Below, piece after piece: positions 1,800 to 60,961 of a stretch of DNA of 64,000 nucleotides. The notes beneath the pieces were generated by a model that worked only from the letters and a program-made list of their open reading frames with translations, made no database searches and was not told where the DNA came from. Origin of the DNA: Escherichia phage EcSzw_1. The stretch lies in sequence record MH791413.1; one strand, given 5' to 3'. Position 1 is the first letter of the stretch; each line of letters starts with the position of its first letter. The position numbers and the translations under genes are program-made.

Positions 1800-2141
1800 T
1801 TAACTTATAAAGATTTTTTCAGGCTTGACGTAGTTCATTTTTTGGCCTTTAAGTAAATCACTCCAGATTAAAGCGGCAATGTGACCATAACCGGATTCAC
1901 GTAGCGCTTTCATCGTGTTGACTTTTGTTTCAAATCGTGTTGCGTAGTATTCACTGTTAAGGGTTGTTTTGTTCCCTTCATTGTCTGTATGAATGATTTG
2001 CATCACATGAAACGGGCTAACATCCTCTCCGAGATTCCATTGCTCAAAGTATTTTAAACACTGCATAGGCGACATATTATCACTGACTCGTGTAGACCAT
2101 GATGAATTTTCTTTATCGGTAATTACGGTTACATGTGCCAT
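1800..2141 (-). CDS. Hypothetical early protein (113 aa)
   Basis: ORF in track; ATG at 2139-2141 followed by cassette. Confidence 0.5.
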   Translation of the reverse strand: MAHVTVITDKENSSWSTRVSDNMSPMQCLKYFEQWNLGEDVSPFHVMQIIHTDNEGNKTTLNSEYYATRFETKVNTMKALRESGYGHIAALIWSDLLKGQKMNYVKPEKIFIS

Positions 2142-23997: not shown

Positions 23998-24232
23998 TGT
24001 TCACCTCTGCCATAAAGTTTTGTAGTGTTCCAACCGGAGTCAGAACATTGCCATCAGTCTTCATGATGAATGGCATCTGACGAACTGGCATCTGTGCAAT
24101 ATCCATCAGTCCTGTCAGTTCATAGTCCTGTCCTAACATTCTTACAACGTGGTCAATACCACGAGCCTTTGCAAAGTTCTTTGCAGTTTCACACTGAGGG
24201 CAACCAGTTTTGGAGTAAATTACGTAAGTCAT
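23990..24232 (-). CDS. Glutaredoxin/NrdH-like redoxin
   Basis: CPQC active-site motif at residues 11-14; 80 aa; between nrdD and nrdB. Confidence 0.6.
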   Translation of the reverse strand: MTYVIYSKTGCPQCETAKNFAKARGIDHVVRMLGQDYELTGLMDIAQMPVRQMPFIMKTDGNVLTPVGTLQNFMAEVNNA

Positions 24233-25305
24233 TAAGGAACCTCTAAATATCCTGAGTTTAAATCATCTACAACGGTATTCAACAAGTACGCACCGTTTTG
24301 CTGTTCTTGGTTAGCATTCTGCTCTTTATCAATTTCCATCTTCTTAATCATGTATTTCAAAGGTGGTTCTTTAGGAGCTACGAAGTCTCTTGGAATACCA
24401 AACATATCATACAATGGTGCAGCGTTATAGTAAACCCACTCATGCAGAAGTTTTGTATTCAAACCAACTACGGCACGACCTTCAGAGAAAATATAATAAG
24501 ACCATTTCTCTTCACTTTCAACCACTTCATCAAGAATTACTTTGATTTCTGGAAGAACCTGACGGAAAGCTTCTTGCCACTCTTCATCTTTCAAAGTTTC
24601 TTTCAGTGCTTCAATGTCAATCTTCGTGTGAAGGATTTCATCAAGCATAATTTTCTGTACTGCCTGAGCAATACCTTGGAACTTATCTTGTGCATCAAGT
24701 GCAAAGGTACATGCAAAGGATGCCATAAAGGATACGCCTTCCAAGGCTGTTACTGCAAAGAGACCTTTCAAAATCACTTTGTGGAAGTGTAAAGGGTCTT
24801 TCTCAAGCAGTGAATCACGAACATAGCCTAAGCGATAGTTGATACCTTCGTCAAGTAGTTCTTCCAGTGCTCTGTTCACAGTCTTCAGACGGTCTTGCAC
24901 AGCAGCATTCTGGTTAATCTCATCAAGGATTGTTTCAGGATTCTTAATACACTGACGAACAATCTCTGAATAAGTCAAGGCATGAAGGTTCTCAATTTCA
25001 GATTGCTTCATAATTGCCGTTGCGTAGATATCATCAGAGATGAATGGTGCAAAAGCAAATGCCAAGCTCTTAGCAACCTGTGTATCAGCTTCCCACTGCC
25101 ACTTAAGAATCTCAAGCATTACACCAGACATGGATTCTGGAACACTTTCAAAGTCTAATCGTGACTGCTCAAATGGGAACTCATCTTCAGACCAGTCTTG
25201 TGCTTTCTGCTGTTTGTACAGTTCAAAGATTTTTGGATAGTGTTTGTTGAGTGAGTCAAAAGTTTTTCGCTCACCACCTAAAAAGATTGGATGTTGGTTA
25301 ATCAT
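24232..25305 (-). CDS. nrdB: Ribonucleotide reductase small (beta) subunit, class I
   Basis: 357 aa, immediately downstream of nrdA; assignment by size and synteny with limited motif confirmation. Confidence 0.65.
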   Translation of the reverse strand: MINQHPIFLGGERKTFDSLNKHYPKIFELYKQQKAQDWSEDEFPFEQSRLDFESVPESMSGVMLEILKWQWEADTQVAKSLAFAFAPFISDDIYATAIMKQSEIENLHALTYSEIVRQCIKNPETILDEINQNAAVQDRLKTVNRALEELLDEGINYRLGYVRDSLLEKDPLHFHKVILKGLFAVTALEGVSFMASFACTFALDAQDKFQGIAQAVQKIMLDEILHTKIDIEALKETLKDEEWQEAFRQVLPEIKVILDEVVESEEKWSYYIFSEGRAVVGLNTKLLHEWVYYNAAPLYDMFGIPRDFVAPKEPPLKYMIKKMEIDKEQNANQEQQNGAYLLNTVVDDLNSGYLEVP

Positions 25306-53018: not shown

Positions 53019-56174
<3,156 letters not shown>

Positions 56175-56175
<1 letters not shown>

Positions 56176-58415
56176 TATTCTTCCTCTGGGTAACTTGAGT
56201 TAAGAAGGATATCTTCTTGGTTCTTGTCCATGATATCAACCGTCTTATTAGCAATCTGCTTACCATCCAGATTGAATGAAACATTCAGGGTCTGTCTAGT
56301 CTGCATAGGGAAACCAGAAGGTGTCATCATCATTGGGGTTTGGTTGAACTTAGTTGCAAAGTTATTTAAAGACTCTGACAAGTTGTTCATGATAATATCC
56401 CAATTGGACATTCCATTATCAACAAAGCTACGATTACCTTGAGCATCTACAGAATATTGTGCAAACTGTAGCTGTCCATTCTGGTCAAAGAACATTGGAC
56501 GTTTTGGGTTGGTAATGCTTGATACGGCATCTTCGAAAGGTTTTGGAAGATTTACTTCACTATATCTTCCGTTATTCTTTCTGTCTGTAGAACCGGATAA
56601 CATCAATGATGAACCAACTGTACCAAGAGCCATTCTTGTTGCTGTGACTCCTGCAACACCTGCTGCTTCAGATGCGGCTGCTGCACCACCTAAACCAAAT
56701 CTCTGCATGATTTTTGCAAAGATACCTTCTTCAAAGATACTCTTAACGAATGCTACAGTCCCACCAAAGATTTTTGCAACCTTCGTGATAGCGGCAATTG
56801 CAACACCAATCATAGCAAAGGTTGAGACCAGTTCAGCAGAATCCTTGATAAGTTTCTGTTGACTTGCATCCAAATCCTTGTACCATGCCATTGCAGAGTA
56901 GTACAGTGAAGATGTTCTATACATGATATCTGTTACGAAGTCAAGTAAGTTACCAGCACCTTTTAACAGGTAACCAATCACTGTACCGAGTGCTTCAGCA
57001 GTACCCATAGAACCTTGTAAGAACATTGCAATGGATTGTGAAAGCTGTGAAATACCGTCGCTAGAGTTGTTAAACAATGCAACTAACATGTTATCCCACA
57101 TAGACTTTGCTTGACCCATTGAGGTAGCTGTCTGCTTAGATACGGCATTCATACCACCTGCTGCCTGTACCAACTCAGCCATCTTTTCAGATACCTTTGG
57201 AAGTACATCTTCAGCAAGGAGTTTACCGTCCTTCATCATCTTATCAAGTTCTTGTGGTGTCTTACCGATAGCGTCAGCAAACAGCTGTACAGCACCTGCC
57301 AAACGGTCACCTAACTGACCACGGAGTTCTTCAGCCTGAATCTTACCCTTAGAAGCCATCTGCTGGAAAGCAACCATGATACCTTTCAGGTCTTCGTCTG
57401 TTGCACCCCTGATACGGGAGAACATCGCAGCGTTCTTATAGAACTCCTGAGTTCCTTGGAATCCAAGAGCAGGTTGAGCACCAGCAGCAAAGTTTGCGTA
57501 TTGCTTCATGGTCGCTGTGTAGTTCTGTCCAATCTGATGAGCGAACGATGCAGCGAACATTCTGGCTTGCTGTGTATCTGCTCCGAAGATAGCTGTTGAG
57601 GCTAACTGTGCAGATTGTCTTTTAACACCTGCATCAATTGTTTTCTGAGCCAATTCTAAGGCTGCATAAGCTGAAACAAAACCACCAATCATCTGACGTA
57701 GAGATGAGTTAGCTCTTTCCTGAAGCCAAGCTGATTCTCTGACTGACTTGAGTCTAGCATTTTCTGCAATAACCCAACGCTTGGTAACGTCAATGAGCTT
57801 TTTGACTTCCATCTCATATTCACCGACTTTACCAGTTCCCTTATATTTGTTATAAAGACTTTGCAAGTTCCCTCTGAAGGAAGCTGCCATTTGATTACCT
57901 TGTCCACCAATAGTTTCAAGGCGACGTGTCAGACCAGAATAGAAGTTGTTGTTAAACATTCTTTCCATCTGTCTCTGAGCAATATCGGGTCTTGGAGGTC
58001 TTGGGTTGCCACTTCCACCAGTAGGAGGGAAGCCAGTACCACCTTTTCTACCACCACGAACAGTGACTTTTCCATCAACTTTCATAGCGTCTCTTAAAGC
58101 CTTGTTAATTTCCTTGGCAGTTTTTCTACCTTGCGTCTCCAGTCTTTTAAGAGATTTAACACCTTGTGAATCAAGGTTAAGGGAGTTGTTGAGTGCTTTA
58201 TTGATTCTGCCCGAAGCAGTCTGAGCGTTTTTTACAATTCTGTTTAATGCTTCCTGTGAAGACTTATTAGGTTTCACGTCAAAGGCTTTGTTAATATTAC
58301 GTTCAATTCGTTGAGCAGACTGCATAGCCATCTTTTCAACTCTCTGCAAACCTTTAACAACCTTTTCACTGAAACCCAACTCCACAATAAAGCTATCAAC
58401 TGTATATTGTGCCAT
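56175..58415 (-). CDS. Tail tape measure protein
   Basis: 746 aa; long helical/coiled N-terminal region; Gly-rich [23 protein letters not shown]; downstream of tail chaperones. Confidence 0.75.
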
Positions 58416-58654
58416 TAAATTTTACCTGCCCTTCTAAGTTCGTTATAAGCAATTTCTTCTTTGTATGACCTCTGGATTTCTAAATACTGTCGCAGAGATA
58501 ATAAATCAGAGAAAGTCATTGAGAAGAGTTGGTCGAGTGTTTCTTTACACCCTTCCATACCGTAAATAGCAAGCACAAATTTCATCTCATCTGCTTCTTC
58601 ATAAGTTGCTGCTACAGCCCCATCAGTCAATGGGGTCTGCATAGCACTACTCAT
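58415..58654 (-). CDS. Tail assembly chaperone frameshift extension ORF (T-like)
   Basis: 79-aa ORF in the -1 frame relative to the upstream chaperone; start 2 nt after its stop; stop overlaps tape-measure start. Confidence 0.55.
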   Translation of the reverse strand: MSSAMQTPLTDGAVAATYEEADEMKFVLAIYGMEGCKETLDQLFSMTFSDLLSLRQYLEIQRSYKEEIAYNELRRAGKI

Positions 58655-58656
58655 GC

Positions 58657-59067
58657 TTACTGAGAAGTTAGGCTTTTGAAAATGCTTGCTTCGAAAAAAC
58701 TTCCGAAATTAGCCTCCAGAGCAAATGCCAAGAAGTCAATAAATTCACCGTAGTTTGCTTGGAAGTATTTATCTACGTTTAGAGGGAAGTCATCTACAGT
58801 TGCACCTTGGAATAACAGAGCAGCCATTGAGTCAATATCGAGTTCATCAATACGGTCAAAGCAAGCTTCAACTAATTCTTTGAAAGGTACTGCTGTTACA
58901 CTTTCTTCACCTTCTTTCTGCTCTTTCCCAGATAAACTTGAAAACATCTGAGCAATTGTCGGTACAACAACTTTACCAAGTTTCATCGACATTTTAATAC
59001 CATCTCTTGCACCTAGCAGGACAATATTCACTTTCTTACCATTAATAATTTTAGATTCTGTCTTCAT
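58657..59067 (-). CDS. Tail assembly chaperone (G-like)
   Basis: 136 aa; between tail tube and tape measure; slippery site near 3' end. Confidence 0.6.
   Translation of the reverse strand: MKTESKIINGKKVNIVLLGARDGIKMSMKLGKVVVPTIAQMFSSLSGKEQKEGEESVTAVPFKELVEACFDRIDELDIDSMAALLFQGATVDDFPLNVDKYFQANYGEFIDFLAFALEANFGSFFEASIFKSLTSQ
58693..58699 (-). promoter_or_regulatory. Putative -1 programmed ribosomal frameshift slippery heptamer T_TTT_TTC
   Basis: Minus-strand GTTTTTTCGAAGC about 12 codons before the chaperone stop; hand translation shows the -1 frame runs stop-free into the 58415..58654 ORF. Confidence 0.5.
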
Positions 59068-59146
59068 TGTGATTCCTTAAATTTCTTAGGTTCTATAAAC
59101 GAAAAAAGGGAAGACCTTTTACAGTCTCCCCCTTATTAGGATGTTC

Positions 59147-59593
59147 TTAAACACTTGACGCAGGAATCGTAGAAGTGTAGTCTAGCTTCTCACAACCAAA
59201 AATCCAAGTTTTAGAGTTCTGGTCACGACCAAGTTCAATCTGTGGCAGTTCCTGCAACCATGCGTTAATACCAGTTGCCAGAACAGAACCAGATGGGTCG
59301 TAGATTACGAAGTTAGAAGAGATATCTACTTCAAGTTCCATGTCATCTTGTTTAGCTTGAATCGCAGAAAGCATCTGATTAGAGAGTGAAGTCTGCATTA
59401 ACTCAATCTCAATAGTACCTGTCTTATCTGCGTTTCTTGTCAGAGCTACCTGACCACCTGCACCAACAACTGGTGTAACAAGTGGAGAAGTTCTCTGTAG
59501 ACGTAAGAATGAATCTGGAGCAAAGCCTTCAATGGCAATACCATTCCAGCTACATACAACGTCTTTAGGGGAATATTGCTGATACATAGCCAT
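59147..59593 (-). CDS. Tail tube protein
   Basis: 148 aa; immediately downstream of sheath gene. Confidence 0.55.
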   Translation of the reverse strand: MAMYQQYSPKDVVCSWNGIAIEGFAPDSFLRLQRTSPLVTPVVGAGGQVALTRNADKTGTIEIELMQTSLSNQMLSAIQAKQDDMELEVDISSNFVIYDPSGSVLATGINAWLQELPQIELGRDQNSKTWIFGCEKLDYTSTIPASSV

Positions 59594-59608: not shown

Positions 59609-60961
59609 TTATTCGTAAGCCACTGTACCTTTCAAGTCAACATCCAAGATAGCACCTGCTAAGATACCTGCGAAGGTAACATCTTTCAGGATACGAGCTT
59701 TCTTGTCTGCTAAAGCAACTTGAGAGGCTTTAGGAACATTAACTGTGTAAGATGACAGGAAGTTTCTGTTAACTGCTCTTTGCAGAGAGGTTTCAATGAC
59801 CTGACGAATACGGGTAATACCAGTATCATCATAAGTAATCTTACCACCCTTCTGATTAATTAGCAAGTCTCTAAGAGAAGTTTTCAAGTCAGATTCTAAC
59901 CAGTCAACACCACGGATGATATCAATCCATTCACCACCAGAAGTGATACCTCTACGTACAACTGGAACACCGCCATCAAGGTCGATGAAGTTGCAGTGAC
60001 GTACATCCAAAGCGGATTTCTGAATGCTTGTCAGAGGTCTCTGGTTAGCTGGCTGAAGAGATGCTTCAACACCAGTCAACTGAGCGTTACCCCAAGCAAT
60101 GGAACCTGCGTCATATGGAGCACCATAAGCGATGTAAGCCATTTCTGGGTAGTCATAACTTGCAGTGTGATGCCATAGGCAAACAGTACGTGTGTACATG
60201 CTCTTAGCAAGTTGTGCAGGAACATCAGAAGCTGATGCCAATTCAGTACCTTGCAGGGCAGCTACATCAGAGTTAGCTGTGAAGAAAATCTTCTTACGAG
60301 CCTGAATCTCAGAAGCCATTGCCAAGACGAACTGTGTAGTTCTGTCTTCAGCAGAAATGAAGTACCAGTCAGTTGAGTACGTTTCAATTGCAGCCAGAGC
60401 ACTTGCAGCAGTATCAGCAGTTGTACCAGCGATTGACACAGAACTTGTTGTTGATGTAACTTTTACGAAGTCATTGTCACCAGCTTTTGTAACAATCATG
60501 GTTGCAGAGCTACCAGTACCTGTTACGTTGATAGTAACATCATCTTTGATTGTTGGGTCAGCTTCAATCTGCTCTTTAAACTGCGTCAGTACAATCAGAG
60601 CGGTGTCATCAGCTTGAGCAGTGTATTGGTATGGCTGAGAAACCCCACCACCTACAGCAACCGTCAGAGAGTAATCTGTGCTTTCAGTTACTTCATCGGG
60701 GATTGAAACTGTATACTGCATAGCACGTCTACCAATATATAGCTGAGTTACTTTTGGAGTCTGACTCCATAGTTGTTTTGCAGCTTTATAAGCAGCAGTA
60801 CTTTCACCGAAATCTTCAGCAACTTCAGTCAGAGAAGTATAGCCACGAACCCTTTCTTCAAAGTTGTCTGTTGACGCTAAGAATAATGGTAGACCAAAAC
60901 CTTCTCTCGTAGTTCCTGCGGTGTTCAATGTAATATCTACATTAACAATTGGATTCCACAT
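59609..60961 (-). CDS. Tail sheath protein
   Basis: 450 aa; position upstream of tube, chaperones and tape measure. Confidence 0.6.
   Translation of the reverse strand: MWNPIVNVDITLNTAGTTREGFGLPLFLASTDNFEERVRGYTSLTEVAEDFGESTAAYKAAKQLWSQTPKVTQLYIGRRAMQYTVSIPDEVTESTDYSLTVAVGGGVSQPYQYTAQADDTALIVLTQFKEQIEADPTIKDDVTINVTGTGSSATMIVTKAGDNDFVKVTSTTSSVSIAGTTADTAASALAAIETYSTDWYFISAEDRTTQFVLAMASEIQARKKIFFTANSDVAALQGTELASASDVPAQLAKSMYTRTVCLWHHTASYDYPEMAYIAYGAPYDAGSIAWGNAQLTGVEASLQPANQRPLTSIQKSALDVRHCNFIDLDGGVPVVRRGITSGGEWIDIIRGVDWLESDLKTSLRDLLINQKGGKITYDDTGITRIRQVIETSLQRAVNRNFLSSYTVNVPKASQVALADKKARILKDVTFAGILAGAILDVDLKGTVAYE

Follow-up and report, generated by a model that had tools for sequence, protein, structure and literature searches.

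The window analyzed here, a stretch of 64,000 nucleotides, comes from a Felix O1-like myophage of E. coli (Suspvirus, Ounavirinae, Andersonviridae). The open reading frame (ORF) map and the family assignments give the minus-strand gene order sheath, tube, ORF1, ORF2 and tape measure (TMP), and the coordinates of all features are collected in Table 1. The presence of a tail sheath gene indicates a contractile-tail phage. The RefSeq records of SUSP2 and FelixO1 label the tail tube gene 'virion structural protein'. The original prediction had placed a 136-aa ORF and a 79-aa ORF in the -1 frame between the tube and tape-measure genes, and both were found there. ORF2 is offset from ORF1 by 413 nt (3n+2), which puts it in the -1 frame. 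ORF1 stops at a TAA (58659..58657), and the TAA that ends ORF2 (58417..58415) shares bases with the tape-measure ATG (58415..58413) in the sequence TAATG, an overlap that had also been predicted.

Table 1. Features of the chaperone locus and its neighboring tail genes
Feature	Position	Strand	Basis or remark
Tail sheath gene (context)	59609..60961	(-)	Pfam DUF3383; phrog_205 'tail sheath', E=3e-120
Tail tube gene (context), directly upstream of ORF1	59147..59593	(-)	PF11681 KPP10_Orf10; phrog_280
ORF1, tail assembly (tape-measure) chaperone, short form (G / TAC-N), 136 aa, standard decoding	58657..59067	(-)	Pfam and PHROG
SD-like GGAGG, candidate upstream stimulator, 13 nt 5' of the heptamer	58713..58717	(-)	Leu-Glu-Ala codons CTG GAG GCT
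Overlap (shift) window, 0 and -1 frames both open, 49 nt	58660..58708	(-)	ORF reading
Locus conservation peak, invariant runs of 12 and 16 nt split by one variable base	58674..58702	(-)	Heptamer and the 19 nt after it
Slippery heptamer T_TTT_TTC, proposed tandem -1 tRNA(Phe) slippage site	58693..58699	(-)	X_XXY_YYZ in ORF1 phase
T segment, 92 codons in the -1 frame, re-read C (58693) to TAA (58417..58415)	58415..58693	(-)	Conceptual fusion; phrog_4963
ORF2, 79 aa, -1 frame relative to ORF1	58415..58654	(-)	ORF map; inside the T segment
Tape measure protein gene (context)	56175..58415	(-)	Pfam TMP_3, E=3e-17; phrog_4036

Both halves of the pair belong to chaperone families. ORF1 matches Pfam PF21822 (Phage_TAC_15) over residues 9-128 (E=1e-21, 78.2 bits against a gathering cutoff of 22) and phrog_1613, 'tail assembly chaperone' (E=2.5e-46). 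The T segment, which contains ORF2, matches phrog_4963, also 'tail assembly chaperone' (E=4e-53), and T segments are homologous proteins across Ounavirinae and beyond, with E from 1e-55 to 2e-6. With a TMP_3 protein encoded by the next gene, these assignments bear out the proposal of a tail-assembly chaperone pair. An AF2 model of ORF1 had a mean pLDDT of 81. A Foldseek search of this model against the PDB returned no match at E<=0.001 (best 5ir0_A, E=1.1), and a sequence search of the PDB was also empty. In the BFVD fold search, the named matches were phage chaperones: that of Citrobacter phage Moogle at E=1e-12, followed by weaker matches (E 1e-3 to 0.5) to myophage 'tail assembly chaperone' entries. 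When the conceptual fusion was used as the query against a large protein database, the best 100 matches spanned the ORF1 part only and included no deposited fusion; the Moogle fusion surfaced solely through the BFVD fold search.

The predicted slippery heptamer, T_TTT_TTC on the minus strand, was confirmed in position and phase. The ORF1 frame around it reads AGT TTT TTC GAA, and the heptamer lies 11 codons before the stop (about 12 in the original prediction). No other in-phase X_XXY_YYZ sequence exists in ORF1. Following a TAA at 58711..58709, the -1 frame is open from 58708 and, as predicted, runs without a stop from the heptamer into ORF2; read from the re-read C, it gives RSKHFQKPNFSVSMSSAMQ... 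and has its first stop at the TAA that overlaps the tape-measure start. The conceptual GT (TAC-NC) fusion, made of ORF1 residues 1-125 and the T segment, is 217 aa long, with a predicted mass of about 24 kDa. For a shift at the heptamer, the predicted tryptic junction peptide is YFQANYGEFIDFLAFALEANFGSFFR, in the context ...GSFFR/SK..., and its 0-frame counterpart across the heptamer is ...GSFFEASIFK. A shift into the +1 frame was considered and rejected, as that frame is open for 6 codons only at this locus and for at most 42 codons, usually far fewer, in relatives.

In-phase heptamers occur at a rate of 0.33% per codon in the ORFs of the window, which gives a chance of about 5% of finding one in a 16-codon overlap. 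Two further junctions between genes of the window look alike by accident, each with an in-phase heptamer close to a stop and a long -1 ORF beyond it. Seen in one genome only, the arrangement is therefore suggestive at most. It goes well beyond chance because the heptamer is conserved and because the conservation peak of the whole locus lies exactly on it.

Related loci were compared, 80 of them supplied by a viral collection. Of the 85 loci, 83 have T_TTT_TTN in phase and a -1 frame that extends far past it, and this holds at protein identities as low as 21%. All 35 close loci carry the heptamer, including those at 43-47% identity, and so do Felix O1, Arno18, the Vequintavirinae phage FENT2 (28%) and the Alteromonas phage PT11-V22 (29%). 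Among the analyzable metagenomic relatives (21-50% identity), it is present in 43 of 45. The two exceptions, L053 and L056, have lost the T-run and carry G_GGA_AAA three codons downstream. Elsewhere, the run consists of T6, or of T7 in some relatives, always in X_XXY_YYZ phase. The FF dipeptide encoded at the heptamer is described as invariant at the protein level; the last base of the heptamer varies among C, T, A and G, so that the second codon specifies Phe or Leu. Since this base is free and yet the T-run is kept, the constraint acts on the nucleotides and not on the protein alone. At every locus with a readable end, the -1 frame runs 37-91 codons beyond the 0-frame stop, and in the annotated loci that were checked it ends at the TMP start or within 54 nt of it.

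The conservation peak consists of the heptamer region and the 19 nt after it; among 32 distinct ORF1-ORF2 sequences of Ounavirinae, no further invariant run of at least 8 nt was found. The 19-nt block is not conserved beyond the Suspvirus/Felixounavirus/Mooglevirus/Kolesnikvirus group. An RNA signal in these 19 invariant nucleotides is thus disfavored, because the block is kept only within the subfamily, and dual coding (EASIFK in frame 0, RSKHFQK in frame -1) is the likelier explanation of the block.

Upstream of the heptamer, the candidate stimulator GGAGG would form a duplex of -9.3 kcal/mol with the anti-SD, which is in the lowest 0.2% of the in-phase background at the locus. Stimulatory SD-like sequences are GAGG, GGAG, AGGA or GGNGG located 6-17 nt upstream of the heptamer (PMC4066793), and GGAGG at 13 nt has both the sequence and the spacing of a dnaX/IS911-type signal. 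The Glu codon used at this site is GAG, which makes up only 18% of the Glu codons in the locus. Over 26 lineage clusters, which are not fully independent, the ratio of GAG to GAA was 21:5 compared with an expectation of 39% (P about 1e-5). Pairing with the anti-SD fell within the lowest 5% of the background in 19 of the 26 clusters; the element is missing in five, namely Kolesnikvirus-like relatives and a few others. Its conservation is explained in part by the conserved Leu-Glu-Ala/Val peptide. The synonymous retention of GGAGG suggests a dnaX-like stimulation of the shift.

No conserved downstream RNA stimulator was found. Folding gave no stable structure at the canonical spacing of 5-9 nt from the heptamer, where a dnaX-type hairpin or pseudoknot would be expected. 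The sole stable hairpin begins about 37 nt after the heptamer (z=-2.3 in single-sequence folds) and is specific to Suspvirus. A fold that included the heptamer was no better than its shuffles (z=-0.08), a consensus fold of eight diverged sequences reached -1.07 kcal/mol with zero compensatory changes, and a search of Rfam gave no match at E<=1. A conserved downstream stimulator was therefore rejected, since the hairpin is too distant and genus-specific, the consensus fold is weak and Rfam was empty. Because there is no stimulatory structure at the canonical spacing, the efficiency of the frameshift may be low.

The explanation that best accounts for these observations is that ORF1 and ORF2 very probably form one recoded gene, read through a -1 ribosomal shift at U_UUU_UUC. 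One alternative is that two separate proteins are made and no fusion exists, with ORF2 translated alone from the ATG at 58654 or 58642, perhaps by termination-reinitiation after the ORF1 stop (TAAGCATG). An ATG does lie 2 nt past the ORF1 stop, here and in most close relatives, so that a degree of independent or reinitiated translation of ORF2 may occur in this phage, and the EcSzw-2, SUSP2, mistaenkt, CHB7 and Felix O1 records annotate separate CDSs. However, no SD-like motif was found before either ATG, and the annotators differ on the start of ORF2 (a 228-nt or a 240-nt CDS). The start codon itself is not conserved: it is ATA in L021, it has moved in the Moogle-like L017/19/29-31, and L033-35 lack it, their first in-frame ATG being 110-170 nt inside the T segment. 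Distant relatives have the 0-frame stop 9-44 codons after the heptamer, and the -1 frame is still open from the heptamer on. Separate translation would also leave the nucleotide conservation of the heptamer and its replacement by G_GGA_AAA unexplained, and we consider it improbable. The heptamer might instead be a coincidence, the product of a conserved Phe-Phe in an AT-rich genome, with the -1 relation due to tight gene packing. The look-alike junctions and the invariance of FF in the protein would fit this explanation, but one of the two control heptamers is lost even in Moogle despite its amino acids being kept. At the site itself, T6 is kept over 26 clusters by constraint on both Phe/Leu codons and on the last base of the codon before them; the second residue may become Leu with the run intact, and another canonical heptamer arises where the run is lost. 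Coincidence is thus the least credible of the explanations, with a probability that is close to negligible.

Two further possibilities accept a fusion and place its origin elsewhere. In transcriptional slippage, RNA polymerase would add one U on the T6, and a fraction of the mRNA would encode the same GT fusion with the ribosome unshifted. The conserved feature is indeed a homopolymeric T-run with a free last base, and the protein would be identical (...GSFFRSK...), so the sequence cannot separate the two mechanisms. Runs of about 8-9 or more give efficient transcriptional slippage in bacteria, and T6 is shorter than this. Programmed transcriptional slippage calls for a long run whose phase is irrelevant, but the run found here is T6 or T7 and is always in X_XXY_YYZ phase, which matters for tRNA re-pairing and not for the polymerase. 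Moreover, the two lineages with G_GGA_AAA have exchanged the run for a classic tandem-slippage site with four A's only, and the conserved motif 11-13 nt upstream that is complementary to the anti-SD points to a ribosomal event. Slippage by the polymerase is therefore judged very unlikely. Alternatively, the ribosome could shift mainly elsewhere in the overlap, through slippage of a single tRNA on the U_UUC tetramer at 58681-58678 or 58708-58705, with a junction such as ...FFEASIFQKPN.... Only one tetramer is more shift-prone in E. coli than U_UU.C (PMC4066793), two in-phase copies are present in the overlap, and the one at 58681-58678 lies within the invariant block. Tetramers are, however, about 10-fold less efficient than the best heptamers, and H_HH.U_UU.Y heptamers rank among the most efficient shift motifs in E. 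coli (PMC4066793). The tetramers are also unconserved outside the close subfamily, where the heptamer is conserved, and it is highly unlikely that they are the main site. Programmed -1 ribosomal frameshifting at the heptamer is well supported by these sequence comparisons.

Under -1 frameshifting at the heptamer, most ribosomes would terminate at the ORF1 stop, yielding the 136-aa chaperone (G, TAC-N). A minority would slip back by one base while two tRNA(Phe) occupy UUU-UUC within U_UUU_UUC; both tRNAs would re-pair on UUU-UUU, and the -1 frame would then be read for 92 more codons. The predicted product is the fusion (GT, TAC-NC) ending at the start codon of the tape-measure gene. While the ribosome elongates, GGAGG would probably help the heptamer through base pairing to the 16S rRNA 3' end, much as happens in E. 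coli dnaX and IS911. If the two products work like lambda gpG and gpGT, the N-terminal part common to both would coat the tape-measure protein, the rare T domain would bring in the tube protein, and both products would be missing from the virion. No experimental demonstration of the fusion protein was found in the literature searched for this phage or its Ounavirinae relatives.

The original prediction had called the locus a conserved 'G/GT-type' programmed frameshift of tailed phages. The locus does have the sequence attributes of such a system, with an ORF pair between the tube and tape-measure genes, a shifted overlap, an in-phase slippery site, conservation and an unconserved ORF2 start. 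Mechanism type, genome position and conservation agree with that description, and no similarity in sequence or fold to lambda gpG or to solved chaperones was detected. In lambda, an abundant short chaperone and a rare fusion, at roughly 30:1, have been shown experimentally (Levin, Hendrix & Casjens 1993; Xu, Hendrix & Duda 2004, 2013, 2014, as summarised in PMC5009743). Both phages have an overlapping ORF pair between the major tail and tape-measure genes with a -1 heptamer near the end of the first ORF, and a shared role in tail-length assembly is presumed. Lambda differs in its non-contractile tail and its G_GGA_AAG heptamer, compared with the contractile tail and U_UUU_UUC here, and ORF1 belongs to Phage_TAC_15, with products that are predicted. 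Phage P2 reportedly offers a contractile-tail case in E/E+E', a chaperone pair flanked by its tube gene (FII) and its tape-measure gene (T); the P2 -1 shift is said to occur on a T-rich run, TTTTTTG, and the P2 chaperones are said to be of a different protein family from ORF1.

The chaperone frameshift has already been described for this phage family and is not new. The GenBank record of Moogle has a joined chaperone CDS, AIW03804.1 (PMC4319497), phage Mijalis provides another precedent (PMC5543628), and a 2025 paper reported a conserved GTTTTT motif in 231 Andersonviridae genomes and also in Vandenendeviridae (PMC12846349). The Moogle genes are homologous to those studied here (ORF1 is 76% identical), with the same position, T_TTT_TTC site and -1 direction, and the length of the 212-aa UniProt product fits a shift in the homologous overlap. 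Nothing essential differs from Moogle and the Andersonviridae, except that the EcSzw-2, SUSP2 and Felix O1 records are without a joined CDS. The in-phase definition of the heptamer, the G_GGA_AAA replacements and the upstream SD-like element were not found in PMC4319497, PMC5543628 or PMC12846349.

With regard to the signal, there is about an even chance that the chaperone frameshift uses two parts, a U6N heptamer and an SD-like element kept 11-13 nt upstream through synonymous codon choice, without a downstream RNA structure, in a dnaX/IS911-like manner stimulated by pairing with rRNA. The group meant is Andersonviridae, Vequintavirinae, and Myoalterovirus-like and metagenomic relatives that share Phage_TAC_15. 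As in E. coli dnaX and IS911/IS3 (Larsen et al. 1994; Sharma et al. 2014, PMC4066793), a heptamer would be combined with an internal SD-like sequence at a spacing within 6-17 nt. dnaX and the IS elements add a downstream hairpin or pseudoknot, whereas none is conserved here; their heptamer is A_AAA_AAG, read by tRNA(Lys), in place of U_UUU_UUC, and the SD effect proposed here is inferred from codon-choice statistics.

The mechanism is a textbook case that would not surprise a specialist, and the main value of this finding lies in annotation: the two ORFs probably yield one joined 217-aa chaperone through a -1 shift at 58699-58693. The records of EcSzw-2, SUSP1/SUSP2 and Felix O1 (RefSeq), and at least most of 257 related Ounavirinae records, show two separate small genes. 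The names given in those records are often 'hypothetical' and sometimes mislabel the genes as 'head closure protein' or 'tape-measure protein'. Felix O1-like phages serve in the typing and biocontrol of Salmonella and E. coli, so correct models of their structural genes are of some practical value. A modest addition is the statistical evidence for a conserved upstream SD-like stimulator, a candidate for which no prior description was found and which offers a simple handle on how the ratio of short to long chaperone may be set without RNA structure. If the two-part signal is real, it would have persisted through very deep divergence, and the choice between GAG and GAA at one Glu codon would tune the G:GT ratio.

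The tail genes lie on the minus strand in the order sheath, tube, 136-aa ORF (ORF1), 79-aa ORF (ORF2) and tape measure. Both this order and the family matches agree with the original prediction of two ORFs between the tail tube and the tape measure. ORF1 matches Pfam family PF21822 (E=1e-21, 78 bits, cutoff 22) and ORF2 matches its PHROG with E=4e-53; both PHROGs are named 'tail assembly chaperone'. The ORF2 start is 413 nt (3n+2) from the ORF1 start and ORF2 is therefore in the -1 frame, as had been proposed. The ORF1-frame codons at the proposed shift site read GGA AGT TTT TTC GAA and, therefore, T_TTT_TTC (58699-58693) is in the X_XXY_YYZ phase of a slippery heptamer. A scan of the whole of ORF1 found no other in-phase heptamer of this pattern. 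The predicted location was correct, at 11 codons before the ORF1 TAA stop (about 12 in the prediction). From the re-read C, the -1 frame (RSKHFQKPNFSVSMSSAMQ...) is open for 92 codons and its stop overlaps the tape-measure ATG as TAATG, so the predicted stop-free run into ORF2 and the overlap with the tape-measure start both held. The -1 frame is closed upstream of 58708, which leaves an overlap of 49 nt in which neither frame has a stop. The conceptual fusion of ORF1 and the -1-frame segment (T segment) is 217 aa.

Features of the chaperone locus, control junctions and replacement loci
Feature	Position	Strand	Match or description
Tail sheath gene	59609-60961	minus	DUF3383 / phrog_205 match
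Tail tube gene	59147-59593	minus	KPP10_Orf10 / phrog_280 match
ORF1, 136 aa	58657-59067	minus	PF21822 Phage_TAC_15 and PHROG 1613
ORF2, 79 aa	58415-58654	minus	PHROG 4963
Tape-measure gene, 746 aa	56175-58415	minus	TMP_3 / phrog_4036 match
C_CCA_AAC, five codons before stop	end of gene 56175..55378, 55378-55400	minus	next gene is the -1 ORF
T_TTA_AAC, seven codons before stop	end of gene 25305..24232, 24232-24260	minus	next gene is the -1 ORF
L053, related chaperone locus	IMGVR_UViG_3300004097_002019, about 1800-1830		G_GGA_AAA replacement locus
L056, related chaperone locus	viral metagenome contig 3300009129_000436		G_GGA_AAA replacement locus

Escherichia phage EcSzw-2 (MH791400.1, a record flagged UNVERIFIED) matches the window at 100% identity, SUSP1, SUSP2, CHB7 and mistaenkt at 98-99%, and Felix O1-like phages at about 88%. 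EcSzw-2 is a member of Suspvirus, a genus of Ounavirinae in the family Andersonviridae. ORF1 homologues are named 'hypothetical protein', 'head closure protein / Hc1', 'tape-measure protein' or 'tape measure chaperone' in public records. The best solved-structure match of the ORF1 model (mb3d781aab32a) was non-significant (5ir0_A, E=1.1, prob 0.77, TMq 0.50). This entry is ORF19 of a Vibrio cholerae PICI-like element, a satellite protein of unknown function, and the model match is a weak hint that it may be chaperone-like. The 79-nt gap between the tube and chaperone genes contains a terminator-like hairpin and T-tract (AAGGGGGAGACTGTAAAAGGTCTTCCCTTT TTTCGTTTAT, 59105-59134, minus strand), a consensus match only, which could be a partial terminator that keeps expression of the chaperone and the tape measure below that of the tube protein.

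The first comparison set consisted of 35 loci, four from phage records and 31 from a viral collection. All 35 have an in-phase TTTTTTC within the overlap window, including Erwinia phage phiEa104 and its relatives (43-47% ORF1 identity). When 32 distinct ORF1-ORF2 sequences were aligned, the only invariant runs of at least 8 nt were 12 and 16 nt long, at 58702-58674, and they take in the heptamer plus the 19 nt that follow. T_TTT_TTC was also found in Pectobacterium phage Arno18 (46%) and Enterobacter phage FENT2 (Vequintavirinae, 28%), and Alteromonas phage PT11-V22 (29%) carries T_TTT_TTT. In these three phages the (S/C)-F-F codons at the site are homologous, and the open -1 frame ends at or no more than 54 nt from the tape-measure start. 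Searching viral contigs with a profile gave another 46 loci (21-50% identity). Among the 45 of these that were analysable, 43 carried T_TTT_TTN in phase, with C, T, A or G as the last base. Their -1 frame runs 37-91 codons beyond the 0-frame stop wherever its end is within the fetched DNA; in L060 it leaves the contig after 25 codons. The proteins encoded by the -1-frame segments are homologous within Ounavirinae and also outside it (E 1e-55 to 2e-6). The T-run persists where the last base varies and, in some lineages, where the second codon turns to Leu; the constraint is, therefore, on nucleotides and not just on the invariant Phe-Phe.

The distant relatives L053 and L056 have lost the T-run (codons ...ATC TTT CAG / CTT TTT ACG) and carry a lambda-type G_GGA_AAA in phase three codons downstream, an exchange of one canonical tandem-slippage site for another. 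Their kin L050-52 contain T_TTT_TTT together with G_GGA_AAC, as if one shift site had taken over from the other during evolution.

In E. coli, U_UU.Y is second among A-site motifs in shift-proneness, H_HH.U_UU.Y heptamers are among the most efficient, and U_UU.U_UU.C shifts at >0.1% even without stimulators (Sharma et al. 2014, PMC4066793). No stimulatory RNA structure was found at canonical spacing from the heptamer; the consensus fold at the site was -1.07 kcal/mol with zero compensatory pairs, and the site had no Rfam match. The sole stable hairpin starts about 37 nt 3' of the heptamer, is Suspvirus-specific and was rejected as a classical stimulator because it is too far away. At 58600-58655 (minus strand), this hairpin belongs to a -29.9 kcal/mol fold (z=-2.3) and spans the annotated start codons of ORF2; Felixounavirus lacks its CCCC/GGGG stem. 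The 19 nt 3' of the heptamer (58674-58692, minus strand, GAAGCAAGCATTTTCAAAA) are invariant bar one base across genera with only 43-47% ORF1 identity, and this invariance is absent in more distant relatives. It is likely due to dual coding (EASIFK / RSKHFQK), and an RNA-level role is possible.

Upstream, a Shine-Dalgarno (SD)-like GGAGG (58717-58713, minus strand) lies 13 nt 5' of the heptamer in Leu-Glu-Ala codons (CTG GAG GCT). The related loci were grouped into 26 clusters, with at least 60% identity within each, and most have an SD-like core, (G)GAGG or A(A/G)GGAG, 11-13 nt 5' of the heptamer. For the Glu, 21 clusters use GAG and five use GAA, compared to a GAG mean of 39% across these loci (P about 1e-5), and the predicted duplex with the 16S rRNA 3' end ranks within the lowest 5% of the in-phase background in 19/26, with the caveats that the peptide L-E-(A/V) is conserved too, the clusters share ancestry and five lack the motif. 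GAG makes up only 18% of Glu codons in the window's locus. The core is kept by synonymous choice of GAG over GAA. SD-like motifs 6-17 nt upstream have been shown experimentally to stimulate -1 shifting (PMC4066793). We regard a real stimulatory role for this element as evenly balanced. No mention of it was found in the papers cited here on the Andersonviridae chaperone frameshift.

Judged from one genome, the heptamer arrangement would be only suggestive: in-phase heptamers occur in the window's ORFs at 0.33% per codon, or about 5% per 16-codon overlap, and at two other junctions in the window one lies a few codons before a stop and is followed by a long -1 ORF. Conservation is, therefore, what separates a real site from chance. 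C_CCA_AAC is absent from Citrobacter phage Moogle (CCCTAAC) though the Asn-Pro-Asn residues are kept, and this junction is probably due to chance since it is not conserved there. Against that control, the conservation of T_TTT_TTC in relatives makes pure coincidence unlikely. Another explanation is that ORF2 is translated separately, without a fusion, from the ATG 2 nt past the ORF1 stop. However, no SD-like motif precedes this ATG in the window, and the codon varies: L021 has ATA, Moogle-like phages have the ATG at a shifted position, and L033-35 have no in-frame ATG until 110-170 nt into the T segment. The ORF2 start is also annotated two ways (228-nt or 240-nt CDS). In distant relatives the heptamer is 9-44 codons ahead of the 0-frame stop, yet the -1 frame stays open from there on. 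Because the motif is absent, the start unstable and the frame open from the heptamer, independent initiation is not the conserved route, and separate translation is unlikely.

Transcriptional slippage in the T6 run would encode an identical protein, but the run is short and strictly in phase, G_GGA_AAA replaces it in two lineages and an anti-SD motif lies upstream, all of which disfavour this route. The in-phase U_UUC tetramers (58681-58678 and 58708-58705) could allow single-tRNA slippage as a minor route, but outside the subfamily they are not conserved. On comparative grounds, a programmed -1 ribosomal frameshift at the heptamer very probably makes the 217-aa GT fusion.

The EcSzw-2 pair is an instance of the G/GT paradigm (Xu, Hendrix and Duda 2004, as summarised in PMC5009743), and the comparison supports the conserved frameshift originally predicted. 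No sequence or fold similarity of the chaperone to lambda gpG or solved chaperone structures was detectable and, therefore, the likeness to lambda is one of mechanism and genome position. The frameshift is already known for this lineage: the Moogle and Mijalis genome announcements mention it (PMC4319497, PMC5543628) and a 2025 paper describes a conserved GTTTTT motif in 231 Andersonviridae genomes (PMC12846349), in each case without experimental proof. The Moogle record (KM236239, L030) annotates the homologous site with a 'tape measure chaperone' CDS joined from two pieces, and its 212-aa product was the top BFVD fold match to the predicted ORF1 model. In contrast, EcSzw-2 and many Ounavirinae records have no joined CDS, and for these the finding provides a corrected gene model. 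The upstream SD-like element as part of the shift signal is a modest, testable proposal.
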